A stretch of DNA of 64,000 bases from Vampirovibrio chlorellavorus. Its GTDB lineage: Bacteria > Cyanobacteriota > Vampirovibrionia > Vampirovibrionales > Vampirovibrionaceae. Position 1 is the stretch's first letter. The number at the start of each line of letters is the position of its first letter. A model generated the notes under the pieces. That model had not been told where the DNA came from, did not search any database, and worked only from the letters and a program-made list of their open reading frames with translations. This document shows positions 30,141-56,081 of the stretch, piece by piece. The translations under genes and the position numbers were made by a program. The stretch is taken from the NCBI GenBank assembly GCA_001858525.1, contig LAPX01000001.1:161473-225472 (forward strand), given 5' to 3'.

Positions 30141-33100
30141 GTGGGAAGTGCCATCATGCCTAGTAATTTTTCGCCCATCCACGCCTTTTACAAACTGCTG
30201 GTGTACACCGCCATGGCCCCCCTGCGGGATCAGGCCTTTCAGGGCACCCGTAAAGCCAAGATCTCCGACACTGAGAAAGAAGCCCTGGCCTCCGGCTCCG
30301 TGGGCTTTGAGCGAGAAATCCTGAGTGGACACCCGGATTGGCGCAAGCTGCTGGATCTGCCCAAACCGCACCTGAACGAAATCGAGCAGGCCTTTCTGGA
30401 TGGGCCGGTGGAACAACTGTGTGCCCTATTGGATGACTGGAAAATCAGGACAGAACTGAAAGATTTACCCCCGGAAGCCTGGGCTTTTTTGAAAGAAAAA
30501 GGCTTCTTCGGCATGATCATTCCCAAGGAATACGGCGGCTTGGGCTTTTCCGCCAGAGCCCACTCGGAAGTGGTCTTGAAGCTGGCCAGCCGCAGTACCA
30601 CCGCATGCGTCACCACCATGGTACCCAATTCGCTAGGCCCGGCAGAGTTGCTGATTCGGTATGGAACGGATGAGCAAAAAAATCATTACCTACCTCGCCT
30701 GGCCAAAGGCGAAGAAATTCCCTCCTTTGCACTGACCGAACCCGATGCAGGATCTGATGCGTCCAGCATGACCGCCCATGGGGTGGTCTGTGAGCGCGAT
30801 GGCCAACTGGGCATATTGCTGAATTGGGACAAGCGCTATATTACCCTCAGCCCCATTGCCACCCTGTTGGGGGTGGCCTTTAAACTGCGCGATCCGGATT
30901 GTCTGCTGGGCCAGAAAAAAGAGCTGGGCATCACGCTGGCCCTCATCCCCACCAATGCCTCGGGCGTAGAAATTGGCCGCCGTCACAACCCCTTGGGCAT
31001 TCCCTTTATGAACGGTCCAACCCACGGCAAAGACGTGTGGATCACCCTGGATCAGATCATCGGGGGCCGGGAGTACGCCGGGCAAGGCTGGCGCATGCTG
31101 ATGGAATGCTTATCGGTGGGACGCTGTATTTCCCTGCCGGCATTGTCGGTGGGTTCAGCCAAACTGGTCAGCCGCATGACCGGTGCTTACAGCCGGGTGC
31201 GCAAGCAATTCAAGGTATCCATCAACCAGTTTGAAGGCGTAGAAGAACTACTGGCCCGCATGGCCGGTACCACCTATCTCATGGAGGCCTGCCGCATCGC
31301 CACCCTGCAAATGCTGGATCGGGGCGAGCATCCCACCATTCTGTCCGCCATCCTGAAGTACCACATGACCGAGTACGGGCGCAAAATCGTCAACGACGGC
31401 ATGGACGTGCTGGGCGGAAAAGCCATCTGCGAAGGGCCAGACAACCTGATTGCCCCGCTCTATCACGGCATTCCCATCGGCATCACCGTGGAAGGGGCCA
31501 ACATCCTGACCCGCAACATGATCATTTTCGGGCAAGGATCGGTGCGCTCGCATCCCTATCTGCTCAAAGAAATCGAAGCGGCCCGTCTGGACGATGAAAA
31601 TCAGGCCCGCGCCGAGTTCAGCGATTTAATGGCCCAGCACGTTCGCCACAGCGTGGAAAACACCATCCGCAGCCTGGTTTTTGGCCTGACCAACGGACAC
31701 GGCAGCGGTGTGCCCAATGCCGATCAAACCGAGGCCTATTACTTCCGGCACATCAACCGCCTCAGCGCCGCCTATGCCACGTTGGCCGATAACATCCTGA
31801 TGCTGCTGGGCGACAGCGTGAAACGCAAGGAACGCATTTCCGCCTTGCTGGGCGATGCCATGAGTTACCTGTTTATGGCCTCCGCGGTGTTGCGCCATTA
31901 TCAGGCCCACGGGCGACTTCAGGATGAACGGCCTTTGGTGCACTGGGCTTGTCAAACCCTGTTGCATCAAGCCGAAGAGAGCATGGATCGTCTCTTGCAA
32001 AACTTCCCCAACCCCATTCTGGGGGCCTTGCTGCGACCCATCATTTTCCCGTTGGGTCGACGCATTCAACTGCCCAGTCACCGTCAGGATCGCAAGCTGG
32101 CCCAACTGCTGGTCACGCCCGGCGCACTGCGGGATCGGCTCACCCAGGGCATTTACCTACCGACCAGCGACAGCGAACCACTGGCCCAACTGGAGCAATG
32201 CATGGCCATGGCCGTGCAAGCCGATGTGCTGGAAGCCACCATTCGCCAGGCCAAAAAAGAAGGCCGCCTGAGCGCACAAACCCCAGAGGCCCTGTTGGAA
32301 GAAGCCACCGCCCAGAAAATCATCAGCGCCCAGGAACGGGCCCTGTTGAAGCAAGTGGAAGTGCTGCGAAAACAGGTGTTGGCCGTCGATGATTTTGACC
32401 TTCACTTCAATTTCCTGGAAAAAAAAAGGGCATTTGTCAGCGGGAGCCAGCTAAAGACGGTTTATCCACTGGGAACCCGCTGGGATCTTGAGTTACCGAA
32501 CCAAAATTTGGTGGCATTATTTGAAGCCGCCGTGGATCGATACCGGCATTTGCCCTGTATGGATTCCATGGGTAAAAAGTACGACTATCAGGAAATGGGC
32601 AGTCTGGTGAACCGAGCCGCCGCTGGGCTGCAAGGTTTGGGCATTCAAAAGGGCGATCGCATCGGCCTGTACATGCCCAATACGCCTTACTACCCCATTC
32701 TGTTTTTTGCCGCCCTGAAAGTGGGCGCGGTAGTGGTCAATGTCTGCCCCATGCACACCCTGAGCGAACTTCGGGAGCAATTGGCTGACAGCGGGACGCA
32801 AACCCTGATTACACTGGATCTAAAGGATTCTTTCAACAAAACGGCCCAGCTACTGGATGAAGGTCTGCTTTCCCGAATGATCGTGTGCAAAATGGAAGAG
32901 GTGCTCCCCTTCTTTAAATCGCACGCCTACCGGCTGTTTCGCAGTTCACAAATTGCCCGCACAGAAGATTGGAGAAAGGACTGGGGAAAAAGCAGTAAAG
33001 CGGGCAAAAATCATAAAGAATCCGTGGCAGAAGTCTCCTCCTCTGGCCTGCGACTGGGCTTCCGGGATCTCATTCACAGCAAGCATGTGTTGCAACCCGT

Positions 33101-34292
33101 GCCCATCGTTCCCCAAGATGTGGCCCTGTTGCAATACACCGGCGGAACCACTGGTACGCCCAAAGGGGCTATGCTGACCCACGCCAATCTGGTGGCCAAT
33201 ATTTGCCAGATTGAAGAGTTCTTTGGATTCTCTGCCAACAAACCCCAGTGTGAAGCACTCCTCCGGCCGGGCCAAGAACGGGTGCTGGCCACCATCCCCT
33301 ACTTCCATATTTTCGGGCTGGCCGTGGCCATGCTCTCCAGCCTGAAAATGGGCGCGGAACTGATCATCCTGCCCGACCCGCGCAACATTACGGAAACCCT
33401 GAAAACCATCCACGAGAAAAAGCCCACCCTGTTTCCAGCGGTTCCCCGGCTCCTGCAGGCCATTTGTGAGCATCCCAAATTGGGCCAATTTGACCTCAGC
33501 AGTCTGCAAACGGTTATCTCCGGTGGCGCCGCTATCCCTCTCTCCGTGCATCAGGCCTTTGAACAGGTGACTGGCAAGCCGGGGCTGATCAAACAGGGCT
33601 ATGGGCTCACGGAAACAGCCCCGGTGGCTGCGGCCAATCCGCCCTTTGGCACCAACAAACCGGAATCCATTGGTTTGCCCTTGCCCCAAACCCGCATTCA
33701 AATCGTGGATCCCCAAGATCCGGATCGGGTGCTGGCCATGGGCGAAGTGGGAGAAATCTGCATCAGCGGCCCACAGGTGATGAAAGGCTACTACCAGCGT
33801 CCGGAGGAAACCGAGCAGATCCTCAGAAACGGCTGGTTTTTCACCGGGGATTTGGGATACCTGGATGACGATCATTACCTGCACATCGTGGACCGCAAAA
33901 AACGACTGATTCTGGTGAATGGCTTTAACGTCTACCCCACTCAACTGGAACACGCCATTACCCGACATCCGGCGGTGGCCGAGTGTATGGTCATCAGCGT
34001 GCCTGACGCCCGATCCGGTGAAGCGGCCAAGGCTTTTGTCCGACTCAAGAACGGGCATCCTCTCAATAGCCAGCAGCTCAAAGATTTCCTGAGCGAGTAT
34101 CTCAGCCGCATTGAAGTGCCCAAGTACGTGGAGTTCATACACTTTGAACTGCCCAAAACGGCGGTCGGGAAACCCGATTGGCGGGCCATGCAGGAACGGC
34201 AAAAGCTGACCGAGCTGCCGCACGGCGACCACCCCGGAGAACACATGATTACCGACATCAACGAAGGACTGGATATGGAGCAGGCATCATGA
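30141..34292 (+). CDS. fusion protein: acyl-CoA dehydrogenase (FadE-like, residues about 1-760) plus long-chain fatty-acid-CoA ligase (FadD-like, about 770-1383)
   Basis: The N-terminal part aligns along E. coli FadE as recalled from memory (KPDWRKL...EQAFLDGPVE...RYGTDEQKNHYLPRLAKGEEIP...GQGWRML..ECLSVGR...DDFD). The C-terminal part carries the AMP-binding motif YTGGTTGTPKGAMLTH and FadD-like N-terminus. A9 tract lies at the junction. Confidence 0.85.
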   Translation: MGSAIMPSNFSPIHAFYKLLVYTAMAPLRDQAFQGTRKAKISDTEKEALASGSVGFEREILSGHPDWRKLLDLPKPHLNEIEQAFLDGPVEQLCALLDDWKIRTELKDLPPEAWAFLKEKGFFGMIIPKEYGGLGFSARAHSEVVLKLASRSTTACVTTMVPNSLGPAELLIRYGTDEQKNHYLPRLAKGEEIPSFALTEPDAGSDASSMTAHGVVCERDGQLGILLNWDKRYITLSPIATLLGVAFKLRDPDCLLGQKKELGITLALIPTNASGVEIGRRHNPLGIPFMNGPTHGKDVWITLDQIIGGREYAGQGWRMLMECLSVGRCISLPALSVGSAKLVSRMTGAYSRVRKQFKVSINQFEGVEELLARMAGTTYLMEACRIATLQMLDRGEHPTILSAILKYHMTEYGRKIVNDGMDVLGGKAICEGPDNLIAPLYHGIPIGITVEGANILTRNMIIFGQGSVRSHPYLLKEIEAARLDDENQARAEFSDLMAQHVRHSVENTIRSLVFGLTNGHGSGVPNADQTEAYYFRHINRLSAAYATLADNILMLLGDSVKRKERISALLGDAMSYLFMASAVLRHYQAHGRLQDERPLVHWACQTLLHQAEESMDRLLQNFPNPILGALLRPIIFPLGRRIQLPSHRQDRKLAQLLVTPGALRDRLTQGIYLPTSDSEPLAQLEQCMAMAVQADVLEATIRQAKKEGRLSAQTPEALLEEATAQKIISAQERALLKQVEVLRKQVLAVDDFDLHFNFLEKKRAFVSGSQLKTVYPLGTRWDLELPNQNLVALFEAAVDRYRHLPCMDSMGKKYDYQEMGSLVNRAAAGLQGLGIQKGDRIGLYMPNTPYYPILFFAALKVGAVVVNVCPMHTLSELREQLADSGTQTLITLDLKDSFNKTAQLLDEGLLSRMIVCKMEEVLPFFKSHAYRLFRSSQIARTEDWRKDWGKSSKAGKNHKESVAEVSSSGLRLGFRDLIHSKHVLQPVPIVPQDVALLQYTGGTTGTPKGAMLTHANLVANICQIEEFFGFSANKPQCEALLRPGQERVLATIPYFHIFGLAVAMLSSLKMGAELIILPDPRNITETLKTIHEKKPTLFPAVPRLLQAICEHPKLGQFDLSSLQTVISGGAAIPLSVHQAFEQVTGKPGLIKQGYGLTETAPVAAANPPFGTNKPESIGLPLPQTRIQIVDPQDPDRVLAMGEVGEICISGPQVMKGYYQRPEETEQILRNGWFFTGDLGYLDDDHYLHIVDRKKRLILVNGFNVYPTQLEHAITRHPAVAECMVISVPDARSGEAAKAFVRLKNGHPLNSQQLKDFLSEYLSRIEVPKYVEFIHFELPKTAVGKPDWRAMQERQKLTELPHGDHPGEHMITDINEGLDMEQAS

Positions 34293-35521: not shown

Positions 35522-38152
35522 ATGGCGGAAACACCGTTCATTCGAAAAGCGGCTGTTCTGGGCGCGGGGGCCATGGGCTCCGGTATTGCCGCCCAATTGG
35601 CCAACGCCGGGGTACAGGTGTATCTGCTGGATATTGTGCCGCCCAATGCCCCCAGTGAAGATGCCTCTGCCCGAAATCTCATTGCCAACAACGCCATCCA
35701 GCGCATGTTGAAAGCCACGCCGGCCACCGATCCGCTGAACGCCGGCTTCATGCACCCGGACAACGCCAAACGCATTACCCCCGGCAATCTGGAAGATCAT
35801 CTGGCCGAAGCGGTGGCCGATGCCGATTGGGTGGTGGAAGTGGTCATTGAGAATCTGGACATCAAACGAAACCTCTACGCCCGACTGGAAACCCTCTGTA
35901 AACCCACAGCGGTGATCTCCTCCAACACCTCCACCATCCCGCTTGAAACCCTGATTGAAGGGCGATCGATGCCCTTTAAAAAACGGTTTATCATCACCCA
36001 CTTTTTCAACCCGCCCCGCTTTATGCACCTGCTGGAAATCGTCAGCGGGCCAGATACCGATGCGGACATTGCCCCGCAAATGCAAACCTTTGGCGATGTA
36101 CATCTGGGTAAAAACGTCATTATCTGCAAAGACACCCCGGCCTTTTTGGCCAATCGTATTGGCATTTACTTCATGTTTCGGGCCATTACCGAGGCCATTG
36201 AGCAGGACATGCCCATTGAAATTGTAGACGCCATTCTGGGCAAGCCCATTGGCTACCCCAAGGAAGGCATTTTTGGCCTGCTGGATCTGGTGGGCATTGG
36301 CATTATTCCGCTGGTTACGGAAAGCTTGTTGAAAACCCTGCCCGCCGATGACGCATTCCGCAAGTTTGATCACGAAAAAGGACTGACCCTGGTGGGCAAT
36401 TTACTCAAAGCAGGATGTACCGGCCGCAATGCCCCCAACGGCGGATTTTACCGCATGCAAAAAAACGCCGATGGCACCAGGCAAAAACTGGCTATTCGCC
36501 TGAGTGATGGCGGCAACTACCCGGTGGAAAAACCCAAACTTGCCTGCGTGAAAGCGGCCCGAAAAGACGGGCCCAAAGCCATGTTTGAAACAGACGATCG
36601 CTACGGACGTTTCGCCTGGGTGGTGGTGCGGGATACCTTGTTGTATGCGGCCACGTTAATCCCCGAAATTGCCGATGACATCGCCGAGGTGGACGCCGCT
36701 TTGCGTGGCGGATACAACGCCCACTGGGGCCCCTTTGAGCAGATTGATCAAGTGGGGGTGGACTGGTTCTGTAAGCGGGTGCAAGCCGATGGCATTGCGC
36801 TACCACCTGCCTTGAAACTGGCTCAGAATCGACCCTTTTACAAAACGGTGAACGGCAAACTGCTTCGGCTGGTGTTTGATTTTGAGCGCCAACAAGCCGA
36901 ATATGCCCCCTTGCTGGATCGACCGGGCTGCCTCAACTTCGGGGAAATCAAACACAGCCAAAACGTTTTAGTCCATCACCATTCGGCCAGCCTGTGGGAT
37001 TTGGGTGATGGGGTCACCTGTCTGGAATTTCACTCCAAAATGAACACCCTGGACCCATCCGTGTTGCACGTGGTCAATGAAAGCGTGCGGTTTATGACTC
37101 AAAACGCCGCCCAATACAAAGCCATGGTCATATACAACGCGGAAAAAAACTTCTCGCTGGGGGCCAATTTGGGCCTTATTGACGCCGGCTTTCAGCTCAT
37201 CCGCCAGCCCTTCATGCGGCAAACCGGCTTAAGCCAACTCTTTGGCCTTGGATTGTACAAAGGCATTGAATGCCTGGTGTTTCAGGGGCAAAGCGTGTTC
37301 AGCGCCTTGCGCTATGCGCCATTCCCGGTGGTGGGCGCTCCCAACGGCATGGCCATCGGGGGCGGCTGCGAAATTTTAATGCACTGCGACGCCCTGCAAC
37401 TAAACGCGGAAGCCTACATGGGGCTGGTGGAAAGCGGGGTGGGTCTTATCCCCGGCTGGGGCGGCTGCGCCCGCTATCTGGCCCGATGCCAGGAGGAAGC
37501 AAACCGCAAAGGTGGGGTGATTCCCCCGGTTCGCAAAGCCTTTCAGGCCATTCTGATGCCCCAACTGGCCGTGTCCACTTCCGGGCAGGACGCCCAAGGC
37601 AAACTGTGGGGCAGCCCGCAAGATGGCATAACCATGAACCCGGATCGGGTGCTGGCCGATGCCAAAGCAAAAGCGCTCTCCCTGATTCCAAACTATCAGC
37701 CGCCACAACCCAGCACCTATCGCTTGCCTGGCCCCAGCGGCAAAGCGGCCTTGCAAATGGCCATTGATGATTTCTATGCCAAAGGCGATGCAACCTGGCA
37801 CGATGTGGTGGTGGCCGATGCCCTGGCCGACGTGTTGACCGGGGGTCCCACCAGCAGCGCACAAACTGTATCCGAAAACGATTTGTTACAGCTGGAGCGG
37901 GAACAGTTTTTATCCCTGATTCGGCTGAAGCAAACCCAAAAACGCATTGCCCACACCCTGAAAAGCGGCAAGCCACTGCGAGAAGATCCCGCCCGTGTGA
38001 GCGATTCACTGGATGAGTTACGAAAGGCTCGTACCGTCAAAGCACTGGCCAAACGAACTGTGACCGGGCTGCCCTTGATTGGGCTGGATGCCCTGCAACT
38101 GCGCTGGATGGCCGAGTTTACAGCGATTTTACTGAAGAAATTCGCTCCCTAG
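35522..38152 (+). CDS. bifunctional 3-hydroxyacyl-CoA dehydrogenase / enoyl-CoA hydratase (HAD domain N-terminal, crotonase domain C-terminal)
   Basis: NAD-binding AAVLGAGAMGSGIAAQLA at the N-terminus; crotonase-fold VVGAPNGMAIGGGCEILMHCD...GLIPGWGG in the C-terminal half. Confidence 0.88.
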   Translation: MAETPFIRKAAVLGAGAMGSGIAAQLANAGVQVYLLDIVPPNAPSEDASARNLIANNAIQRMLKATPATDPLNAGFMHPDNAKRITPGNLEDHLAEAVADADWVVEVVIENLDIKRNLYARLETLCKPTAVISSNTSTIPLETLIEGRSMPFKKRFIITHFFNPPRFMHLLEIVSGPDTDADIAPQMQTFGDVHLGKNVIICKDTPAFLANRIGIYFMFRAITEAIEQDMPIEIVDAILGKPIGYPKEGIFGLLDLVGIGIIPLVTESLLKTLPADDAFRKFDHEKGLTLVGNLLKAGCTGRNAPNGGFYRMQKNADGTRQKLAIRLSDGGNYPVEKPKLACVKAARKDGPKAMFETDDRYGRFAWVVVRDTLLYAATLIPEIADDIAEVDAALRGGYNAHWGPFEQIDQVGVDWFCKRVQADGIALPPALKLAQNRPFYKTVNGKLLRLVFDFERQQAEYAPLLDRPGCLNFGEIKHSQNVLVHHHSASLWDLGDGVTCLEFHSKMNTLDPSVLHVVNESVRFMTQNAAQYKAMVIYNAEKNFSLGANLGLIDAGFQLIRQPFMRQTGLSQLFGLGLYKGIECLVFQGQSVFSALRYAPFPVVGAPNGMAIGGGCEILMHCDALQLNAEAYMGLVESGVGLIPGWGGCARYLARCQEEANRKGGVIPPVRKAFQAILMPQLAVSTSGQDAQGKLWGSPQDGITMNPDRVLADAKAKALSLIPNYQPPQPSTYRLPGPSGKAALQMAIDDFYAKGDATWHDVVVADALADVLTGGPTSSAQTVSENDLLQLEREQFLSLIRLKQTQKRIAHTLKSGKPLREDPARVSDSLDELRKARTVKALAKRTVTGLPLIGLDALQLRWMAEFTAILLKKFAP

Positions 38153-38966
38153 GGTAGTCGATCAGAAAACCGTCATAGGCCAACCAGCCCTTCATGTCTC
38201 GACCAGGGCGATTCACTTGGCCTTGAGGGACGTACCGTAGCAAGGCTTTCTCCAGGGTGACAAAACCCAATTGTTTAAAACGCGTTCTATCCTCGGCAGA
38301 TTCTGGCTTGATAAGCAGGCGCAAGTTCTCTTTTCGGGCTTGTTGCATGGCTTCCTGCAACAGATAATCTTCAATGGCTTCTCCCAACTCGCTCTGTCGA
38401 ATGGCATTAGGAATATCGACTTCCAGTGCGTAAAAGGTCTTGGGTTCGGTGTTGCCCAGCATACGAGAAGCCCGCTCACGCCGCAGGGTACCCAAGGTAA
38501 GACCGATTGAGTTTTTCAACCAAAAAGCCCCATGGTCACTTAAATTGCCATATTGGGATAACACATGCTCCACAGCCTTGGCGTCGTCTACCACAGCCAC
38601 TTTTTTCTCAATTTTAAGGCGTTGTGGAATGGGAATTTGTGGGGCTTGATAAAGCCCAGGCGCCCCAAAACGAACCGGGCTTGCCTTAGACGGGGCTGGT
38701 TTTCGGTGGGTCGAACCCAGCGGCAGTAACATCAGCTCGGTCACAGAAGGTTGCTTTTTGAAACGATTACCAAGCCCCTGCCAGAGCGTTTGCAGCTTTT
38801 GCCAAATCATGGTGGCGCAATGAACATCATTTTCAGCAGTTGAATCCAGCGGCAAGGGTGCCGTCAAGGGCCAGTTGGGATAACGCTCCGCAACAGTCAC
38901 AGGCTTCAATTGCCTGTTCATTCTGGAAACTGGCTGTTGCCCCAATGAGGATACAGTGCTGTTCAT
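38118..38966 (-). CDS. hypothetical protein with GNAT-like acetyltransferase C-terminal half
   Basis: C-terminal region FYALEVD...GEAIEDYLLQEA...LRLLI compatible with the GNAT fold; the true start is probably internal. Confidence 0.35.
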   Translation of the reverse strand: MNSTVSSLGQQPVSRMNRQLKPVTVAERYPNWPLTAPLPLDSTAENDVHCATMIWQKLQTLWQGLGNRFKKQPSVTELMLLPLGSTHRKPAPSKASPVRFGAPGLYQAPQIPIPQRLKIEKKVAVVDDAKAVEHVLSQYGNLSDHGAFWLKNSIGLTLGTLRRERASRMLGNTEPKTFYALEVDIPNAIRQSELGEAIEDYLLQEAMQQARKENLRLLIKPESAEDRTRFKQLGFVTLEKALLRYVPQGQVNRPGRDMKGWLAYDGFLIDYPRERISSVKSL

Positions 38967-39282
38967 AAGATAGCCCTCCGCAGTAAGGTCGTTTCATAGG
39001 CTACAAAAAGGATGACGTTGAGAATAATACATATATCTACAATAAATAACCCCTAAAATAAAGAGCCCTCATTGGTTTGTGGCCTTGAATACGCTCTAAC
39101 GTGGGACCTTTTGATCTTAAAGGACCCAAGAGCCTGATTAGGACTTGAATAAACCGGATGAAAAGAAATGTAAAAATAAACTCAAAAACACTGTAGGTTT
39201 CAGCGAATTTGCCGAAAACAAAAAAAGGAATGAAAAAAGGAAATATTGCCCCTCCCCACTTTGCAAATAAAGGGATAACCAA

Positions 39283-40203
39283 ATGCCCAATCATCCCGGT
39301 CAATCGAGATTACATCGCCGTGCTTGGGGAAATGTAACGCCCGAGTATGCCCTGATTGGTGCGATTGTTCTCGGCGCGTCCTGTGTGGCCTTGGCCAATA
39401 TTGGAGATACGGTCTCCATTCTGTTTAATAATATGCTGGGCACCAAGCCAAAGCAAACCACTGAAGTCACCGCGCCGCCAACAGGCAACGGGCAAGTTAA
39501 TCCTCCCCCTCAGCAAGGTGCAGGGGTGCGCATCACCCTCTCTGATGGGACCATCATCCACTTACCGGAATACCCGCAGGATCTCACCTCATTAATCAGC
39601 ACGGCAGGGGCAAATGGAGCCACCGATGTACTGGCCAACACCATCAAAGTACTGGCCCAACAATTGCTGGATAGTGGCGCCATTACAAAGGCAGAATTCA
39701 ATAACCTGATTGCTATGTCCAACCAGGGTCACCGCATTGCCAATGTTCAAAAAGCCATTGAATCCGTGGCCCAAAATTCGAGCAGTCCCTCAGAGTTTAG
39801 TTCCAGTATGTTTGAGTTCGATGGGAACACATACAGTCTGGATGAAATCACTGCGCTCATTGGTTTCGATAACGATTCCATGGATCCCAACGCGGTTGTG
39901 GATCACCTAACCGACCCCACAGCCAGCCCCGAAATCAGTGCTTTTCAAAATCTTTTCGCAAAAGCACTGCAGACCGGCGCGTTGGATGATCCAGTGCTCC
40001 GGGATGTGGTTCAGACCTTATCAGAACAAATTCTGTCATTAAGCGACCTGACTAACATTGCAGCCTACAATATTGCAGATTACTCAGCACCTCCAAGCAG
40101 TATGACTCAGAATATAACAAGCAATTTAACCGATCAAAAAGCGGCTGGAATCTGTGGTGCCGGGGCCGGTGTGGATTCCGGAGTGCAATGCTCAGCCACC
40201 TGA
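39283..40203 (+). CDS. large Flp/Tad-type pilin-like protein, copy 1 (class III signal peptide plus ~270-aa C-terminal domain with terminal Cys-Cys loop)
   Basis: Leader MPNHPGQSRLHRRAWG|NVTPEYALIGAIVLG matches the Flp G|xxxxEY(G/A)(L/I)I motif; conserved mid-region NQGHRIANVQKAIE; C-terminal C-GAGAGVDSGVQ-C. Confidence 0.7.
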   Translation: MPNHPGQSRLHRRAWGNVTPEYALIGAIVLGASCVALANIGDTVSILFNNMLGTKPKQTTEVTAPPTGNGQVNPPPQQGAGVRITLSDGTIIHLPEYPQDLTSLISTAGANGATDVLANTIKVLAQQLLDSGAITKAEFNNLIAMSNQGHRIANVQKAIESVAQNSSSPSEFSSSMFEFDGNTYSLDEITALIGFDNDSMDPNAVVDHLTDPTASPEISAFQNLFAKALQTGALDDPVLRDVVQTLSEQILSLSDLTNIAAYNIADYSAPPSSMTQNITSNLTDQKAAGICGAGAGVDSGVQCSAT

Positions 40204-40352
40204 TTTTTCGATACGCCTGACCGTGACTTAAAGTTAACCGACCGACAAAAACAAGTCTGTAATTTGGAAGCTACAGGGGCCTCTAGAATGGAGGATTGAT
40301 GAAAGCCCACCCGTTTTTTAAACCCAATGTAAAAACATTTATAAATCCCTAA

Positions 40353-40640
40353 AGATTTGAGAAAAACCGTCGAAAAAAAGCTAAAGATTAGGATTTACCA
40401 ACTTTAACCATCATTTACTTTATCAGGAGAACCTTATGCGGCGTAAATACCCAGGCAGACCATACCGAACCGCCACTGTGGGGAATACTCTAACAGAATA
40501 TGGAATTATCGGTTTCATTGTCTTGGGGCTTAGCTGGTTGGCACTCAGCAACATGGGGGACTTTGTCTCTACCCTGTTCAAAAATATGTTGGGACAAAAA
40601 CCATCGCCAACGGCACAAGTCGCTGCACCACCGTCTTCAG
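40353..40640 (+). repeat. direct repeat A (~290 bp): conserved promoter, 5'UTR, leader and N-terminal coding module of Flp-like copy 2
   Basis: About 95% nucleotide identity to 41456..41741 (GAAAAACCGTCGAAAAAAAGCTAAAGATTAGGATTTACCAACTTTAACCA...ATCAGGAGAACCTTATG...); similarity ends abruptly after ...GCTGCACCACCGTC. Confidence 0.8.
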
Positions 40641-41356
40641 TAAGCCCTCCCACGGATACTGAGGGGCCACTGACCAGTGATGTACAAGTGACCTTAGGCA
40701 ATGGCACTACCCTGGATCTGTCAAGCTACCCCCTGGATTTTACAGAATCTGTTGTCACATCAGGCGCCAACGGAACTACCAACCTGCTCGCCAATACCCT
40801 TAAATCTCTTTCTCAACAACTCCTGGAAAAAGGAGAAATCAACCAAGATCAGTTCAACACACTAATCGCCCTGGCCAATCAAGGGCACCGGATGGCAAAG
40901 ATCCAAAAAGTCATTGAGACAATGGCCTTGAACTCAACTAGCTCCAATAAATATTACAACAGTGTTTTTAATTTTGATGGACAGACTTATACCGTAGATG
41001 AAATCAGTATGATGATAGGGTTTGACTATGATGATCCCTCTTCAATTTCAGACCCTTTAACGGATCCAAACGGTGGTGCAGAAGTCATAGAATACCAAAT
41101 GCTTTTTCAACAGGCAGTCAACAGCGGCGCCTTAAATGATCCGACTTTAAATCAAGTCATACGAACATTATCATCCCAAATCATATCGTTATCGGCTTTA
41201 ACCGAACATGCCTCTTACAATATCGCTATTATTGGAGATCCCCCAGACAGTATAAGAGAAAATATTACCAGTAATTTAAACAATAAAAACGCAGCCGGGA
41301 TCTGCGGGGCAGGCAACGGTGTGGATAATGGAGTCCAGTGTGCGTCAGGCGGCTAG
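40436..41356 (+). CDS. large Flp/Tad-type pilin-like protein, copy 2
   Basis: MRRKYPGRPYRTATVG|NTLTEYGIIGFIVLG; conserved NQGHRMAKIQKVIE; C-terminal C-GAGNGVDNGVQ-C; RBS CAGGAGAA. Confidence 0.7.
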   Translation: MRRKYPGRPYRTATVGNTLTEYGIIGFIVLGLSWLALSNMGDFVSTLFKNMLGQKPSPTAQVAAPPSSVSPPTDTEGPLTSDVQVTLGNGTTLDLSSYPLDFTESVVTSGANGTTNLLANTLKSLSQQLLEKGEINQDQFNTLIALANQGHRMAKIQKVIETMALNSTSSNKYYNSVFNFDGQTYTVDEISMMIGFDYDDPSSISDPLTDPNGGAEVIEYQMLFQQAVNSGALNDPTLNQVIRTLSSQIISLSALTEHASYNIAIIGDPPDSIRENITSNLNNKNAAGICGAGNGVDNGVQCASGG

Positions 41357-41455
41357 AATCCTGATTAGTCCATTCGCCTGAGCTGTGGAAAACTAGCCGA
41401 CCACAATTCTTAGAAAGTTTTGATTCGAATGTAGAAAATAATATAGAAATGCCTT

Positions 41456-41741
41456 CAGATTAAAGAAAAACCGTCGAAAAAAAGCTAAAGATTAGGATTT
41501 ACCAACTTTAACCAATGCTCACTGTATCAGGAGAACCTTATGTAGCGTAAATACCGAGGCAAAACGTACCGAACCACCACTGTGGGGAATTCCCTAACAG
41601 AATATGGAATCATCGGTCTCATTGTCTTGGGGCTTAGCTGGTTGGCACTCAGCAACATGGGGGACTTTGTCTCCACCCTGTTCAAAAACATGTTGGGAGA
41701 AAAACCATCGTCAACGGCACAAGTCGCTGCACCACCGTCCT
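41456..41741 (+). repeat. direct repeat B (~290 bp): 5' module of Flp-like copy 3, near-identical to repeat A
   Basis: See 40353..40640. Confidence 0.8.
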
Positions 41742-42460
41742 CAGGCGCAGGTATCAACACCCCTGACGCACTCACGAATAACCTGAACGATGGAAGCTTA
41801 CTTGAAATTGGATTAAGTAAAAGGTTGCAAACGTTAGGGGCAAACGGTGCAACTTCTACTCTGGCAAACGAATTGATAAGAGTGGCAGAGGAGGCCTTGG
41901 CTACTGAAAAAATCAATCAAGAGCAGTATGATATTTTGATACAGCTTGCTAATCAAGGTCACAGAATGGCTGACATTCAGTTTATGATTGAGAATGCCAT
42001 TGAACTTTCTAATGGGAATTATAATGAATTTAGTTCGAGTGAAGTTACCTGGGATGGGCGTACTTATACGGTATTAGAACTCTCTAAGATGTTAGGTCAT
42101 GATGGCTCGCCTAATATTTACACATCAGAAGGAAATATTTTAGAAGATCTATCTTCTATGAAAAACAGTGCCGTAGATCCTGAACTGGCTGCATTTATAA
42201 ATCTGTATAAGCAAGCACTGGATAGCGGCGCTCTATCGGATCCTTTGGTGAGCTCCACCGTGGAAAGCGCAGCCACTCAGATTGCAAGTATTGGGGAAAT
42301 TGTACAGCATTCTATTTATGAATTTTCAGAAGGTGATGTTAACACCGTTTCCGAGTTTAAGGATAACCAGGTTTCCATTGCAACAGATATGGAGTCTTCT
42401 AATATTTGCAAGGCTGGAGATTACGACGACAGTGGCGTTTACTGTTCACCCAAGAATTAG
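41582..42460 (+). CDS. large Flp/Tad-type pilin-like protein, copy 3. The ancestral start ATG at 41537 is followed immediately by TAG, so the ORF can only initiate at GTG 41582 (leader reduced to about 2 aa). Possible pseudogene or silent cassette
   Basis: atgTAGcgtaaatac... vs copy 2 atgCGGcgtaaatac...; downstream frame encodes ...TTTVG|NSLTEYGIIGLIVLG, NQGHRMADIQFMIE, C-terminal C-KAGDYDDSGVY-C. Confidence 0.55.
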   Translation: MGNSLTEYGIIGLIVLGLSWLALSNMGDFVSTLFKNMLGEKPSSTAQVAAPPSSGAGINTPDALTNNLNDGSLLEIGLSKRLQTLGANGATSTLANELIRVAEEALATEKINQEQYDILIQLANQGHRMADIQFMIENAIELSNGNYNEFSSSEVTWDGRTYTVLELSKMLGHDGSPNIYTSEGNILEDLSSMKNSAVDPELAAFINLYKQALDSGALSDPLVSSTVESAATQIASIGEIVQHSIYEFSEGDVNTVSEFKDNQVSIATDMESSNICKAGDYDDSGVYCSPKN

Positions 42461-42615
42461 GGATTGAAAAATCAGGAGATTATCTCTGAGGAACTAAAAA
42501 TCAGCCGAATGACTATCTCAGGACCCCAATTCGGGTAATCCAGAGACTGGCAGAAAAGAATAAAATAAAGGGGTTCCACCCTCCCGTCAGGAGATAGCTA
42601 TCAAGGAGGCTCCTG

Positions 42616-42981
42616 ATGACATGCTCAGACTTAGCTCTTCTTAAAACGGAATGGCTCTCAAGAAGAAAGCCTGACGCTACCCTATTGCGGGCAACCCACT
42701 TTGAAAAACTGATTCAATGCTTTAGTCAGGGCTACCCGCCCTCAGTTCAAATGCCATCGGTTGTATCACTGGCAGCGCTTTACCAGTGCGAGATTCTGTC
42801 CTTGTTGGGCAGCCTGAAACAATTGCATCAACATGCCTACGACTACAGGATGAACAGCCTGGATTTACCGCTGGTGCTTCTGGATCCGCTGTCTCGTTTT
42901 CGTTGCAGAAAATCACTGCTACGCCTGAAAAAAAGACAGACTCTCAAAAATAAGAAACAGGTAAACCCTTACCACTTATGA
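42616..42981 (+). CDS. hypothetical protein (121 aa)
   Basis: Strong SD AAGGAGG 8 nt upstream of ATG; no recognised domain. Confidence 0.5.
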   Translation: MTCSDLALLKTEWLSRRKPDATLLRATHFEKLIQCFSQGYPPSVQMPSVVSLAALYQCEILSLLGSLKQLHQHAYDYRMNSLDLPLVLLDPLSRFRCRKSLLRLKKRQTLKNKKQVNPYHL

Positions 42982-43030
42982 TACCCAGAGTAAACCACCC
43001 ATCGTGATTCACTTGGAGGAGAGACCCACT

Positions 43031-43486
43031 ATGAAGATTTTATTGCCCATTGATGGCTCCGATTGCTCAAACCGCACGCTGGAATGGGCAAGCCAAACCT
43101 TTGATCCACAAAACACCCAGTATCACTTATTGTTTGTCATACCAGTTTTGCCGGACTTAAACACAGTGGAATTCGATATCGTGGAAGCCACGGCCATGTT
43201 ACGAAAAGCCGGTAATTACCTGGAGCGCCAGCATTGTACCGTGGGCAGCTCCGATTACGCGCTGGGAGACACGGTGGATCAGATTTGCCGATACGCCGAT
43301 GATATTAATGCCGATCAAATTGTACTGGGCTCCCATGGCAGAACCGGCCTGGCAAAGCTGATTATGGGGAGCACCAGTACCCAGGTTTTGGAACGCAGCC
43401 GCAGACCGGTCACCATCCATCATCCAGTGCCCATCAGTGGCAGTGCCAAAGCGGTCAGCCAGACCGAAGAAGCACTCAGCACCTGA
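43031..43486 (+). CDS. universal stress protein (UspA family)
   Basis: MKILLPIDGS...IVLGSHGRTGLAKLIMGSTSTQVLERSRRPVTIHH Usp ATP-binding motif; SD GGAGGAG before the Met at 43031. Confidence 0.8.
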   Translation: MKILLPIDGSDCSNRTLEWASQTFDPQNTQYHLLFVIPVLPDLNTVEFDIVEATAMLRKAGNYLERQHCTVGSSDYALGDTVDQICRYADDINADQIVLGSHGRTGLAKLIMGSTSTQVLERSRRPVTIHHPVPISGSAKAVSQTEEALST

Positions 43487-43979
43487 AGCACGGGCTTACA
43501 CAAAAAGCATTCAGTTTGCATTTAACCCAAGGGCATAAAACTCAGCCCTGCAACAGAAGCCCTGCGGAAGGCTTCTGTTGGTTATGCAAAATTTCAATAG
43601 CCCATCAGCATCAACAGATTGTGCGGTCAGTCTTACCATTTCCGGAGAAATTACCCAAGTGGTTAGGTATGTTTACACAGCATTTTGCATACAATAAACA
43701 CTGTTCGGAGTCTCAAAGCCCAAGGCGTTGACTCCCTTTTGGACCCCAGTTTTTACGTTTGGAATGGTTATTTACCCGTGGAAAAGGATATCGTTTGATT
43801 AAACTCATTGGCTGAATGCGCCTTTTTCTCTTCTAACGAGAAAGTGGCTAAAGACTTAGCGTGGTCACAGTACATCATTCCCAGCCCCTCCAGGCTTTGC
43901 TGAGGGGTTTTTTCATGTCTGGAACACCACAACAAAATTTACTCAAGCAGTGACAAATATGTTGTGAAAGGATACTGAC

Positions 43980-44330
43980 CTAATATTTTGCTGGAAAACG
44001 ACGATGGCCAGGAATCTGTCGTTTATAGCTGGCGGGTTGCGAAGGAGCTTTTGCCGTGCCATTCAGCGCCGCAACACCGGGACGCAACAACGGACTCTGA
44101 GTGTAAAGCTGACTCTTGAATTCCAGAATATCCACAGCGCCTTGCTGGGCCCGTTGCTCCGTGCGGGGAACGTTGACTCTGCGCAGTAACTTCATGACCT
44201 GCTGTGTACCGGCCAATTCCGCAGGAATCCGCACAGACGATTTGGCAAAACCAACGCCCGTCACCAAAAATAAGGTAACTACTAATCCAGTCACGTAACC
44301 AGTGAATCGAGTCATATTATGAGACCTCAT
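43980..44330 (-). CDS. hypothetical membrane-anchored small protein
   Basis: N-terminal TM helix (TGYVTGLVVTLFLVTGVGFA); start uncertain (Met at 44330 or 44315). Confidence 0.3.
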   Translation of the reverse strand: MRSHNMTRFTGYVTGLVVTLFLVTGVGFAKSSVRIPAELAGTQQVMKLLRRVNVPRTEQRAQQGAVDILEFKSQLYTQSPLLRPGVAALNGTAKAPSQPASYKRQIPGHRRFPAKY

Positions 44331-52056: not shown

Positions 52057-53151
52057 ATGGTAACGACAACTCTAAACAGCATTACCTTGCCGTCCAAACG
52101 GTCCACAGGGAAAACTCTACCTGTGCGCTTTGGTTCCGGCAGCGCCATCCTGGCCAAAACGGCCGGGCCAGAGGTTCAGCATGAAGCCGTGGTACGCGGA
52201 TACCGTTTTGCCAGCTTCATCAAAAACCGCCTGCTGGGTGGAAAGCTGTTTAATAATGATATCCGTTGGGGCGGTTTATCCCTGGAGGATATGGCCAGTC
52301 GGGTACAAACCCTGTTGGGCGTTTATCTGCTGCAAGGCTACTACGCCATTAAAGACGACAAACACCCTTGGGAAACCAATGGCCGGAACGCTGTTATCTG
52401 GGTGATGACCCTGTTGCTGCAAAACCTGGCCAAAAGTGAGAATTACGGGGTCAATACCCTGCTCTTCAACCCGTTTATGCGGCAAAAAGGATACCTCTCC
52501 TCAGAAATGTCCGGGCTGCAAAAATTCCTCGATCGCGGCCGCATGGACGTGGATTATCTGGATATCCTGCAAGATGCCGGCATTAAAATCAGTGATGACG
52601 AGCTAAAGGGCGCCCGAAAGGGTAAAAAAGCCTTGTGGGCCTCCTCTTGGCTGGACGCTAACAAGACGGATATCATTAAAAAACGATATCGGGACCTCCA
52701 TCAAAAGATACAGGAAAACGCCAAAGCCCTGGCCGACAAAAAGCCCATTCCCCATATCCTGACCCCTCTGGAAAAAGCCATAGAAAAAGAGATTCCCCGG
52801 TTTTTTAAACGAATAAATGGCTGGAACATGGCATCCACAGGGCTAGTCGTCGGAGCCACCATATATTTCATTGGCGGGGTGGCCATGGATATCGTCAACA
52901 AAGTCATCTCTCCCCTGGACAAAGACTTTGAAGGCAACAAGAACCTACCCCCCGACCAAATTCTTAAAAATCCCATCCTGGCCAAAACCCACCCGCCTCA
53001 GAGTACCCTCACCAACACCCCGTTTTCACCCACCACTACCAGTAGCATCACCACACCGCCAATCCAATTTTTTCAGAGTTATGTGAGTCACCGTCGTCAT
53101 AGCACCCCATCTACCCTTCCCGGCTCTAGTCTTCCCGGAGGGCTTGGTTGA
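52057..53151 (+). CDS. hypothetical alpha-helical protein with C-terminal hydrophobic segment and S/T/P-rich tail (first gene of a coupled pair behind an AT-rich island)
   Basis: 364-aa ORF, K/E-rich coiled-coil-like; TM-like GLVVGATIYFIGGVAM; stop TGA overlaps the next start (TGATG). Confidence 0.55.
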   Translation: MVTTTLNSITLPSKRSTGKTLPVRFGSGSAILAKTAGPEVQHEAVVRGYRFASFIKNRLLGGKLFNNDIRWGGLSLEDMASRVQTLLGVYLLQGYYAIKDDKHPWETNGRNAVIWVMTLLLQNLAKSENYGVNTLLFNPFMRQKGYLSSEMSGLQKFLDRGRMDVDYLDILQDAGIKISDDELKGARKGKKALWASSWLDANKTDIIKKRYRDLHQKIQENAKALADKKPIPHILTPLEKAIEKEIPRFFKRINGWNMASTGLVVGATIYFIGGVAMDIVNKVISPLDKDFEGNKNLPPDQILKNPILAKTHPPQSTLTNTPFSPTTTSSITTPPIQFFQSYVSHRRHSTPSTLPGSSLPGGLG

Positions 53152-56081
53152 TGGGCATGCTTCCAATGGCTATGCAGCTGAACCCCTGGGCACAACGAGC
53201 GCTGGCTCAGTCAGTGAACCTGGGCTACGCTGGACGGGGCACCTATCGGGTTCATGAAACCAACCCGGAGCGCAAAGGGGATTATTGGTTTCGGGACTTT
53301 GGCATGGTCATGGCTTGCACCTACATGACCGAAATGGGCTTCCGGGGAACCGAACGCTTTTACACCATGCCCTTGTTGACCAACGCCCTGGAGCTTCAGG
53401 CCCTCAGAACCGAGCTTGGCCAAAAGCGGGTTATCCCCACCTTTGATACAGTGCAAATAAAAAATGGCGCACGCACAGACTCTGTCCAGTTGCTCAATTC
53501 CAAGCCCCTGTATCCACGGGCCTGGAACTATTCCGAGTTGCCCGAAGCGCTGCGTGAGAAGATGATGGGCACCCTGATCCGCAACAGTTCCGAGCTGGTG
53601 CCCCAAGTGTTGCAGGAAGAAGCCCTGAATGAAATCAGGGCGCTAGAAATCAAGGCGTTAAAAGAAAAGGCGTTAAAAGAAAAGAATCCCCCGCCTTATA
53701 AAAGCTTGAAACAGCTCATCACCCATCCGCTCAACCCGGATAATGGCAACTTGGTGGAAGCGTTCATCGAAAAAACCGCCGGACTCAGCAGCCATCGGGC
53801 CGAGTTGGAACGCATCGCCAAAATTGACAACAAAGCCACGGCCGAGGCGGAAACCCAAAAACTCTTTCAGAAACTATCCGCCACCCACACGGACAAAGAA
53901 ACGCTGAAGGCCCACATTCAGCAATCCGTGCAACTGCTCAAAACCGAGCAGTTGGGCATTCTGATCAACCATCTGGATCGCAACCTGAACTTTCAGCATT
54001 ATTTGGAAAGCAACTTTTTAAAACCCAAAGCAGAAGTCCTCAAGCCCAAGGGCGCCATTGAGCCTCGTTACTTCAAGTTGCCGGAAGCTTTGGCCCCGCG
54101 TAACCCCTTTAGCGCCGTGGATGAAATATCCGGCATTGTGTCCGATCGGATGCGCTTTTACATTGATAAACTCAATAGCCTACAGCACCAGGGAAAAGCC
54201 GATTTACGCAGCCTGGCCGAAAAAGTCCGGAGGCTGCCTCTGGATCAGCGGGAAAAAGCCTTCACCAAAGGTATTCAGGAAATCGAAAACCTGCAGTTTC
54301 TGTACAAAAAACAATCTCTGACCGACCACTGGCATGCCTCCACCAGCAAAGATATTTTGAAACTGATGGAAGAAGAGAAGTTAGATACTAACGCGGCGCA
54401 GGATCTCATCAAACAGGAAAACCTGGAGCGACAAACAATCCTGCAAGGCATTCAAAAAAGTAAAAAGCAGCTTGGCAACCAGGATCAAAAGCTAAAGTGT
54501 CTGGAAGAATGGGCCGACAACAACCACAATTATCTGCTGAACTGGGAAAACGAATTCCGCATTGAAAAAGACCGGCTTCAGGCTTTTCTGACCAAACCCA
54601 CCGAGCGGGCCCACAAGCCCAAGGGATACATTTCCATGAACCAGCTGAACACCCAGCTAGGGCATTTTGAAGGCTGGTTTGAAACGATCTCCAAAAGCCT
54701 GCAAGTCCGAAACGCCATTTTGGACAACTTGTGGCAGCACTTGGGCGAGGATTTGCTGCTGCAAGTGAAGAAAAAAGTAAAAACCGCCTTTGAAGACGTC
54801 AACAAACTCTCCTACGAGCACTTACCCCTCTATACCGAAGGTCCGCTGAAAGGCCAACCGGTGGAGAAAGGGAAACTGCTAGAAGCCCGATTACAAGATA
54901 TTGGCCTGCGGCACTGGCTGGATGATAGCGAAATCAAGCATTTAAGTGAAGATTTGGCCCAGCATTTACCAAAAATGTCCAGTACCACTGAGACCGCCAA
55001 AGACCTTGAGCAGCACAGCGTGGAATCAGTCATGGGCAAGGTCAAAAAGACCATTTGGGCTCACCTGACCGGTGATGTGGATTACAACAACCTGAACGAT
55101 TCGTTCTGTAAAAACTTAAAAGCCCAAGTGGATGCCAAACTGAACGCGCTGAGCCCAGAACAGCAAACCACGCTGAAGGCCGGAAAAATACGGGGCAAGC
55201 TGTTCAGTCAGCTTACCAACACCGATGCCTTCGGCAACCCGCTCTCCAATCAGTACGAAGAGGGCATGGAAACCCTGCTGAAAAAAATCCTGAACGAAGC
55301 AAACCTGCACGTTGTTAAGAATCAGAGCGGTCACGAGGTTAAAAGTGCGGAGTGGACGGTTAAAAGCCTGATTACTGATGGCTTGCAAAGCCATATGGTC
55401 AAGTCCGCGGTGGATAAGATTCAGAAAAACGGCACCTGGCCCAAAATTCTGGCCACCGTGGGGCTTAACTTCGTCTTCTACGGATGGCTGGCCAGCCGCT
55501 TTGACAATAAAGTTCTGCAACCCTACCAGGAAAAGCTGGTGGCTGAAAAAGGAACCGCTCAGGATATCGTCAATGCCGGCTATCTGGGTACCTTGCCCGC
55601 CGTTGCTATTCTCTCCCAGGCCTGGGACAAAACCACCTTGCCAATGCTCAACGGCCTGAGACGTATGAACCACTTCAGCCGCTTTGCCTCCGTGGGTGGC
55701 GTAGCGCTGGGCGTGTTTGCAGCCTCTTCCTATGGATTCCTGAAAGTTTTGGAAAAAAAGTCAGCCCCCCAACCCGGATATCCCAAAAAGCAACCCCCTG
55801 CGGTGACACCAAACACCCAGCCATCCGTGCAACCAACCTTTAACGCCCTATCAAAGCCCGCCATTACGCCGCCTGCATCCAGTCTGGATAGCCCCTTCAG
55901 TAATCGAAGCCAGTTGAACGGCCTACCCTTTCAAAGTTATCGTCCTCAGGCCACCGCGTTCAACCAGCCGCAAAAGCGTCCCGTACTGAATCGATCCAGT
56001 GCCGGGCCGACTTTTCTATTTCCACCCTGCTTTCAAGGACAACCCTTTCCTGTAAAGCAACCGCTGCCTAAGGCTGAGTAG
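53151..56081 (+). CDS. large hypothetical coiled-coil protein (976 aa) with bilobed C-terminal hydrophobic region and Pro/Gln-rich tail
   Basis: Long K/E/Q/L-rich helical sequence (e.g. EIKALKEKALKEKNPPP); hydrophobic ILATVGLNFVFYGWLA and FASVGGVALGVFAASSYGF near the C-terminus; no enzymatic motif; ATG at 53151 (ORF track starts at TTG 53148). Confidence 0.6.
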   Translation: MGMLPMAMQLNPWAQRALAQSVNLGYAGRGTYRVHETNPERKGDYWFRDFGMVMACTYMTEMGFRGTERFYTMPLLTNALELQALRTELGQKRVIPTFDTVQIKNGARTDSVQLLNSKPLYPRAWNYSELPEALREKMMGTLIRNSSELVPQVLQEEALNEIRALEIKALKEKALKEKNPPPYKSLKQLITHPLNPDNGNLVEAFIEKTAGLSSHRAELERIAKIDNKATAEAETQKLFQKLSATHTDKETLKAHIQQSVQLLKTEQLGILINHLDRNLNFQHYLESNFLKPKAEVLKPKGAIEPRYFKLPEALAPRNPFSAVDEISGIVSDRMRFYIDKLNSLQHQGKADLRSLAEKVRRLPLDQREKAFTKGIQEIENLQFLYKKQSLTDHWHASTSKDILKLMEEEKLDTNAAQDLIKQENLERQTILQGIQKSKKQLGNQDQKLKCLEEWADNNHNYLLNWENEFRIEKDRLQAFLTKPTERAHKPKGYISMNQLNTQLGHFEGWFETISKSLQVRNAILDNLWQHLGEDLLLQVKKKVKTAFEDVNKLSYEHLPLYTEGPLKGQPVEKGKLLEARLQDIGLRHWLDDSEIKHLSEDLAQHLPKMSSTTETAKDLEQHSVESVMGKVKKTIWAHLTGDVDYNNLNDSFCKNLKAQVDAKLNALSPEQQTTLKAGKIRGKLFSQLTNTDAFGNPLSNQYEEGMETLLKKILNEANLHVVKNQSGHEVKSAEWTVKSLITDGLQSHMVKSAVDKIQKNGTWPKILATVGLNFVFYGWLASRFDNKVLQPYQEKLVAEKGTAQDIVNAGYLGTLPAVAILSQAWDKTTLPMLNGLRRMNHFSRFASVGGVALGVFAASSYGFLKVLEKKSAPQPGYPKKQPPAVTPNTQPSVQPTFNALSKPAITPPASSLDSPFSNRSQLNGLPFQSYRPQATAFNQPQKRPVLNRSSAGPTFLFPPCFQGQPFPVKQPLPKAE

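Follow-up and report, generated by a model that had tools for sequence, protein, structure and literature searches.

In a 64,000-nt stretch of a Vampirovibrio chlorellavorus contig (LAPX01000001.1, hereafter the window), three paralogous open reading frames (ORFs), c1, c2 and c3, lie on the same strand, and c2 and c3 begin with a nearly identical 5' module that is followed by very different 3' parts. Our data indicate that c3 is a recombination-made chimera, in which c2-type upstream DNA and a pilin core appear to be joined through a linker to a domain from a foreign subfamily. We consider it probable that a single past recombination event copied the front end, and the evidence does not support an active antigen-switching device. 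The three genes are as follows.

39283..40203, + strand: c1 (copy 1), 306 aa, the resident ortholog of the gene that relatives carry in single copy at this locus.
40436..41356, + strand: c2 (copy 2), 306 aa, intact, with a C-terminal domain (C-domain) in the c1 clade (97.5% bootstrap).
41540..42460, + strand: c3 (copy 3), apparently chimeric, with the aligned ATG followed by TAG and an open frame of 292 aa from GTG 41582.

The original prediction had proposed near-identical 5' modules in copies 2 and 3, and these proved real by both a repeat search and a base-by-base comparison. The repeat search returned direct repeats spaced 1,104 nt apart (40331-40630 versus 41435-41734; 300 nt, 90% ungapped identity), whereas the base-by-base comparison defined a sharp core (40360-40640 versus 41464-41744) with 22 differences, or about 92% identity. 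Exactly two module copies occur within the 64-kb window, where 0 are expected by chance. Each runs from ~76-95 nt upstream of the gene through the ribosome-binding site to codon 68. The module and the parts that follow it comprise these features (slash, predicted cleavage site).

40345..40640, + strand: 5' module copy A, with sharp core 40360-40640 and a fuzzy 5' edge at 40331-40359; leader, Flp-like core and start of the linker.
41449..41744, + strand: 5' module copy B, offset by +1104 relative to copy A.
40361..40410 and partner 41465..41514, + strand: non-coding upstream block, a 100% identical pair and candidate promoter/operator.
40425..40429 (c2) and 41529-41533 (c3), + strand: Shine-Dalgarno AGGAG, 6 nt 5' of the ATG, read directly in the sequence.
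40481..40501 (c2) and 41585-41605 (c3), + strand: putative prepilin-peptidase/assembly motif G(-1)/N T L T E(+5) Y(+6), placed by alignment.
40641..41353, + strand: variable 3' part of c2, the remaining linker and a c1/c2-type helical domain.
41745..42457, + strand: variable 3' part of c3, with a domain from another subfamily and 37% aa identity to c2; proportion of differing synonymous sites (pS) = 0.82, saturated.

The two modules match at 258 of 280 aligned nucleotides in the core, compared with 321 of 669 (48%) in the remaining codon alignment (Fisher p = 1e-42), and at the 40640/41744 boundary identity falls from ~95% to ~30-50% over ~10 nt. Downstream of the repeat c2 and c3 still share 48% of nucleotides and 37% of amino acids, and the family's invariant residues are kept in c3; the claim that similarity drops to none was thus mistaken. 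Within the core, uninterrupted identical blocks of 51 nt (40360-40410), 55 nt (40515-40569) and 28 nt alternate with unevenly distributed differences: 0 in the 51 nt of the upstream block (P = 0.014 given 8% divergence), 6 in the 10 nt just 5' of the ribosome-binding site, 9 in the 51 nt of the leader (83% identity; ratio of nonsynonymous to synonymous divergence, dN/dS, ~0.9) and 8 in the 151 nt of the mature N-terminal part (dN/dS ~0.23). The predicted identity of ~95% is correct for this mature N-terminal coding part alone, and is too high for the leader and for the module overall (92%).

Two lines of evidence identify c3 as a likely chimera. First, synonymous divergence (dS) between c2 and c3 is 0.13 in the module and saturated downstream (pS = 0.82), and a low-dS tract beside a saturated remainder is what segmental gene conversion or a recombinant chimera leaves behind. 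Second, the two ends of c3 have different phylogenies, as expected of a recombinant chimera. In the N-terminal neighbor-joining tree, c2 and c3 group together with 100% bootstrap, nested in the c1/P0024/P0002/P0003 clade (98%), whereas in the C-domain tree c2 falls in that clade at 97.5% and c3 is excluded. Because the dS contrast and the tree incongruence agree, we regard c3 as chimeric on sequence grounds. The C-domain of c3 best matches the P0019/P0020/P0116 subfamily (42-44%) versus 34-37% to c2. In that subfamily the native N-termini have the sequence '...KVRDDM..H.Q', versus the c2-like '...LFKNMLGEKPS' present in c3, and just past the breakpoint c3 has the short 'LL..L...LQT.GANG' domain entry of its subfamily, not the 'ITL.DGT...YP.DL' hairpin of the c1/c2 type. 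The breakpoint at 40640 lies within a linker (residues 54-79) that is disordered in the AlphaFold2 model.

Comparison of the locus between genomes places these events in time. The relatives compared were two V. chlorellavorus-group genomes, further metagenome-assembled genomes and a closer relative, L020; in every one the syntenic locus holds one copy, the c1 ortholog, bordered by a fadB-like gene and a 282-aa ORF on one side and by a small ORF and a Usp gene on the other. In L020, the c1 ortholog is directly followed by the ortholog of window ~42530-42620. The missing part corresponds to one block.

40204..42530, + strand: block with c2 and c3, missing from the syntenic locus in all relatives examined.

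Since the relatives carry only the c1 ortholog at the locus, c2 and c3 are specific to this genome. Along its entire length the c1 protein is 68% identical to its V. chlorellavorus orthologs, rising to 73-74% in the C-domain, and it is ~91% identical to the P0024/L020 ortholog, and c1 and the L020 gene differ by dS = 0.41 with dN/dS 0.15. Synonymous sites between c1 and c2 are saturated while c1 and its ortholog differ by 0.41 only, so a recent origin of c2 as a c1 duplicate was rejected and c2 is an old paralog. By the same measure, the sharing of the module is younger than the split between this species and that of L020, because a module dS of 0.13 is below 0.41. GC content at third codon positions is 0.45 in c2, 0.41 in c3 and 0.51 in c1, compared with 0.60-0.67 in the housekeeping neighbours. 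Positions 40001-44000 form an island of lower GC content (0.44-0.46 versus 0.52-0.57 around it), which coincides with c2, c3 and the small downstream ORF.

We hypothesize that one recombination event on the evolutionary time scale placed a copy of the c2 front end on a gene whose domain belonged to a different, old subfamily, with the junction falling within the disordered linker. The transfer probably ran from c2 to c3, the donor being on the c2 side, and could have been an ectopic gene conversion or an unequal crossover or duplication followed by fusion. The N-terminal module would be built for cleavage by a Tad-type prepilin peptidase and for the membrane or filament core, and the helical domain of ~225 aa would be displayed outside. 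Several points weigh against this account. The uneven spread of differences along the module could reflect several tracts of different ages instead of one event, and exchange between the modules may be ongoing. Classical RecA gene conversion would be short of flanking homology if the original 5' end of c3 was as divergent as its subfamily. Moreover, both the filament role and the display of the helical domain on a filament are predicted from sequence, and the window contains no tad genes.

The start of c3 bears on whether the chimera is expressed. Its second codon is a stop.

41543..41545, + strand: TAG nonsense codon at c3 codon 2, where c2 has CGG.

The stretch 41540-41584 therefore begins as a minimal start-stop (ATG TAG). 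Recoding of TAG was considered and rejected: c2 and c3 both end on TAG, and it is thus a genuine stop in this organism. The next in-frame start is GTG 41582, which lies two residues before the predicted cleavage site and has no Shine-Dalgarno sequence in front; a prepilin made from this start would have a leader of just 2 residues. Because of the TAG at codon 2, c3 is presumably silent or weakly translated at present.

The strongest alternative is that the locus is a working system of recombinational variation, in which c2 is expressed, c3 is a cassette silenced by its start-stop, and recombination within the modules swaps or activates the displayed domain, varying surface or prey-binding specificity. 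We regard this as unlikely, although part of the evidence is in its favour. The layout of constant 5' and variable 3' parts, with perfect blocks of 51 and 55 bp, is the one such a system would have. The start of c3 is destroyed while the invariant residues of its domain are kept, and a crossover past codon 2 would express the c3 domain from the c2 start. An equivalent layout arose independently in another contig, L021, in whose lineage species differ in copy number (1 versus 2) and in the 3' domain behind a conserved module. In addition, the C-domains are hypervariable across the family, which comprises 2,074 clusters at 50% identity.

However, the mechanics argue otherwise. There are only two copies, and each has its own upstream block, ribosome-binding site and ATG, in place of a single expression site with promoterless silent cassettes. 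As the repeats are direct, a crossover between them gives only an irreversible deletion of 1,104 bp. Such a deletion, which could still arise through the 51-/55-bp perfect blocks and would fuse the c2 start to the c3 domain, is a by-product of the arrangement and not a demonstrated switch. Deletion between the repeats, which the original prediction saw as swapping the expressed cassette, would run one way only and without a single expression site. The 22 positions (8%; dS = 0.13) at which the copies differ argue against frequent exchange or homogenisation. The only inverted repeat is 24 nt long with 75% complementarity, unlike the sites of a shufflon; a regular-expression search of both strands of 38001-44000 returned no G-quadruplex (G4) motif; and no recombinase domain occurs among the neighbours scanned. 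Three of five tandem family arrays compared at the DNA level (L006, L014 and L016) lack a shared module, and the L021 variants belong to different species (~85% nt identity) and not to one population. Constant 5' ends before variable 3' cassettes had been taken in the original prediction as the architecture of recombination-based antigenic variation or gene conversion; the architecture and a gene-conversion origin are upheld by the dS contrast and the trees, and a functioning antigenic-variation device is not.

A second alternative invokes no recombination, and holds that c3 is a recent tandem duplicate of the whole c2 gene whose 3' two-thirds diversified rapidly while purifying selection held the 5' part. 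The pilin core is indeed constrained (dN/dS 0.23 in the mature part) and the C-domains of the family evolve fast. Nevertheless, selection on protein cannot hold synonymous sites and at least 76 nt of non-coding DNA at 92% identity with saturation immediately downstream, the fall in identity is too abrupt (~10 nt), and the c3 domain is nearer to proteins of other species (42-44%) than to c2 (34-37%), lying outside the c1/c2 clade (97.5%). The dS contrast rules out purifying selection as the sole cause, and we consider the explanation as a whole highly improbable. It is equally improbable that c2 and c3 are alleles or distant loci misjoined through the shared 55-bp identical block during assembly or by strain mixing: the sequence probably comes from a draft or metagenome-derived assembly, as the c2 product is recorded from one NCBI contig of 233 kb, searching the contig collection for exact matches to the c1 and c2 proteins gave nothing and hence no second assembly of the organism for a cross-check, and two family members elsewhere sit at contig ends (L005, L016), but the module copies differ at 22 positions and each is bounded by unique sequence on either side, which places both in the genome, the 5' flank of c1 and the 3' flank of c3 are each syntenic with relatives, and similarly arranged tandem arrays occur in independent assemblies (L021, in two samples, L006 and L014).

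A single past recombination between paralogs, our preferred explanation, gains from a second array. A soil Vampirovibrionales contig (L021, 7905-10040) carries a tandem pair that shares 95 nt of upstream DNA and ~300 coding nucleotides at 89% identity, with dS of 0.66 over codons 1-120, 2.8 over codons 121-170 and saturation beyond codon 170. This is a second, independent case of 5' sharing, in another Vampirovibrionales lineage. The syntenic site, beside a conserved Peptidase_M16 gene, holds 1 or 2 copies in related species.

L021 7905-10040; L022 1401-2357; L024 244-1209: members of the L021 lineage.

Between these species the module is 80-97% identical in nucleotides and the mature N-terminus 97-100% in amino acids, compared with 35-70% nt (51-66% aa) for the 3' domains and 84-90% for the flanks. 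In this lineage, 5' homogenisation is recurrent on an evolutionary scale and is accompanied by fast turnover of the displayed domain; these comparisons do not amount to a demonstration of population-level switching.

The identity of the proteins was approached through alignment, structure prediction and profile searches. From N to C terminus the alignment comprises a basic leader, an invariant G/xxxxEY, a hydrophobic stretch, a variable Pro/Ser-rich segment and a conserved domain with the motifs TxGANGTT, LANQGH and SGAL.DP and a C-terminal cysteine pair, IC..G...D.G..C (Cys290/Cys302 in c2). Each of the three proteins has a prepilin signal of Flp type, G/NxLxEY; G16, E21 and Y22 are invariant in the family alignment, and a hydrophobic helix follows, as in Flp class III signals. 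In c2, a 16-aa leader precedes the site G16/N17..E21 Y22, and a helix (18-52), a disordered linker (54-79) and a helical domain (~80-290) follow. AlphaFold2 on the alignment returned this layout with a predicted local distance difference test score of 82 (core >90): helix 18-52, disorder 54-79, then a mostly helical domain. The model is therefore modular, with a pilin module, a Pro/Ser linker and an extra folded module of ~225 aa. That extra module has no Pfam match, and Foldseek against the PDB found nothing better than E = 0.9 for the model.

Family profile positions 12-49 match two Tad pilins of experimentally solved structure, 8u1k (PilA, Caulobacter; E = 1e-4) and 8u2b (Flp; E = 8.6e-4), and the 38 residues matched span essentially the whole mature pilins. 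The description of the copies as 'Flp-like' is thus sound at the level of motif and remote homology. Searches with curated families were negative or below threshold: c1, c2 and c3 do not match Pfam PF04964 Flp_Fap (gathering score 32.2 bits), relatives reach only 16-21 bits, and of 24 members searched, 7 show weak, sub-threshold Flp_Fap matches with E-values down to 0.0013. The N_methyl / IPR012902 prepilin motif is likewise without a match, and neither c1-c3 nor the flanking ORFs of 282 and 121 aa could be assigned to a family in Pfam, NCBIfam or PHROGs. No tad or cpa genes lie beside the family members examined, the L014 member included; in the window the neighbours are beta-oxidation, Usp and PFOR genes. 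A cpaB/C/E/F-tadB locus and several 'Flp' genes have been reported in V. chlorellavorus (Soo et al. 2015, Table S3). Judged by sequence and model, the proteins are best described as putative Flp-type modular pilins, each with a complete Flp core, a linker and a new helical domain.

Upstream of the genes, the original prediction had assigned copy 1 a different promoter. The c1 upstream region is indeed not significantly alignable (z = 0.8), but at an equal distance from its ATG it has a short motif, TAGATTT-N11-14-GTCGAAA, in common with the module. This motif stands ~60-95 nt 5' of the ATG in c1, c2 and c3 (window ~39190-39225, 40350-40385 and 41455-41490) and in single-copy orthologs (upstream regions in L001, L002, L010 and L020), marks the 5' edge of the c2/c3 module, and may be a common promoter or operator. 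Predicted sigma-70 promoter-like sites numbered 4, below the 7.2 ± 2.2 of shuffled sequence, with none marking the c2/c3 upstream region; terminator-like sites were 8 versus 4.3 ± 2.3 (~1.6 standard deviations), with none marking the c2/c3 gene ends. A riboswitch or leader RNA was considered and rejected, since an Rfam search of the upstream block and 5' untranslated regions gave no match and no stable RNA fold, and these regions are less structured than shuffled controls. Downstream, a motif TA(G/A)CCGA(C/A) recurs ~40-55 nt 3' of the stop in c1, c2 and c3 (window ~40235-40250, 41395-41410 and 42505-42520) and in the relatives' orthologs; its presence after all three copies suggests that the duplication unit included the 3' flank.

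The family is large, undescribed and uncharacterised. A first homolog search gave 23 proteins, of which the organism-named ones were all Vampirovibrio and several were labelled 'Flp pilin' by JGI, and an exhaustive profile search gave 2,074 clusters at 50% identity, 475 of them at E <= 1e-30. Lengths range over 250-350 aa, nearly all 290-330 aa. Named members sampled were all Vampirovibrio, and eight genome matches were all Vampirovibrio or Vampirovibrionales; a degenerate DNA pattern for the module peptide had 0 matches in JGI metagenomes. One member, P0022 (L007 7711-8747; also L008 and L009), is split into a 110-aa ORF, with a degenerate N-terminal module (GKALHSY, the assembly Glu replaced by His), and an overlapping 248-aa domain ORF. 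As the split is identical in three assemblies, P0022 is probably a frameshifted or decaying copy. A second V. chlorellavorus paralog, P0016 (L005 1-922), is cut inside the N-terminal module by a contig end, which may be an assembly break at the repeated module.

Elsewhere in the window, the convergent fadB-like gene and 282-aa ORF have 35 nt in common at their 3' ends (38118-38152), an arrangement kept in L001, L002 and L020. A 1,383-aa ORF (30141-34292) heads the beta-oxidation cluster; its equivalent in L001/L002 is a fusion of acyl-CoA dehydrogenase and AMP-binding (acyl-CoA synthetase-like) domains, which were read in those relatives only. Two adjacent ORFs (52057-56081), of 364 and 977 aa with a 4-nt overlap, gave no match in Pfam.

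The repeat is what recombination between paralogs ordinarily leaves behind, here as a fossil within a tandem array from a new family of Flp-type modular pilins. Its main value is the family it exposes: proteins that combine an entire Flp/Tad pilin core with a helical domain unlike any solved structure, the two being connected by a flexible linker. The pilin core stays conserved and has been homogenised repeatedly along with its promoter, while the displayed half changes at a much higher rate than the genome around it. Molecules through which these algae-killing predators meet their prey (or phages) would be expected to show such a pattern, and the family members are concrete candidates for the attachment factors of Vampirovibrio. 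A bolder view, to which we give little credence, is that the Tad pili of predatory Vampirovibrionales carry Flp-core modular pilins whose hypervariable helical domains bind prey, that arrays with a shared promoter and pilin core are means of recombinational diversification, and that c3 is a start-stop-silenced cassette that recombination with c2 could activate.

Constant and variable pilin parts have been combined in several known systems. In Neisseria pilE/pilS, a pilin family with constant N-terminal and variable C-terminal parts is likewise diversified by non-reciprocal recombination. However, pilS cassettes have neither promoter nor 5' coding region, whereas it is precisely the 5' region that is duplicated in c2 and c3; the locus also has just two copies, lacks a G4 initiator and shows no sign of high-frequency exchange. 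The R64 PilV shufflon and Moraxella Piv inversion also join a constant pilin 5' end to alternative C-terminal segments, but they use inverted sites and a dedicated site-specific recombinase, in contrast to the direct repeats described here, near which no recombinase is found. Flagellin has a conserved, recombining filament-core part and a hypervariable exposed domain; the likeness is an analogy only, as fold, secretion route and gene layout all differ. Segmental gene conversion between tandem paralogs, as in pilin and surface-protein families, is closer, with a sharply bounded tract over the conserved N-terminal part, far lower synonymous divergence within it, and incongruent phylogenies of tract and remainder. 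It differs in that the tract here includes upstream regulatory DNA and in that the recipient comes from another subfamily, giving a domain-swapped chimera and not simple homogenisation.

The proteins themselves align with the Flp/Tad pilins 8u1k and 8u2b in leader, G/xxxxEY motif and hydrophobic helix; they differ in size (~40-60 aa for the mature pilins versus 292-306 aa here), in falling below the Pfam Flp_Fap threshold and in not being encoded beside tad/cpa genes. Modular type IV pilins such as Streptococcus sanguinis PilB (Raynaud et al. 2021, PMC8179133) share the combination of a small N-terminal pilin module with a bulky module that is presumably displayed on the filament. The survey that described them used the N-methyl type, IPR012902 (Raynaud et al. 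2021, PMC8179133), whereas the core here is of Flp/Tad type (G/xxxxEY, ~40 aa), the linker is long and disordered, and the extra module is all-helical with no Pfam or PDB match. The family thus extends the idea of the modular pilin to the Tad/Flp class.

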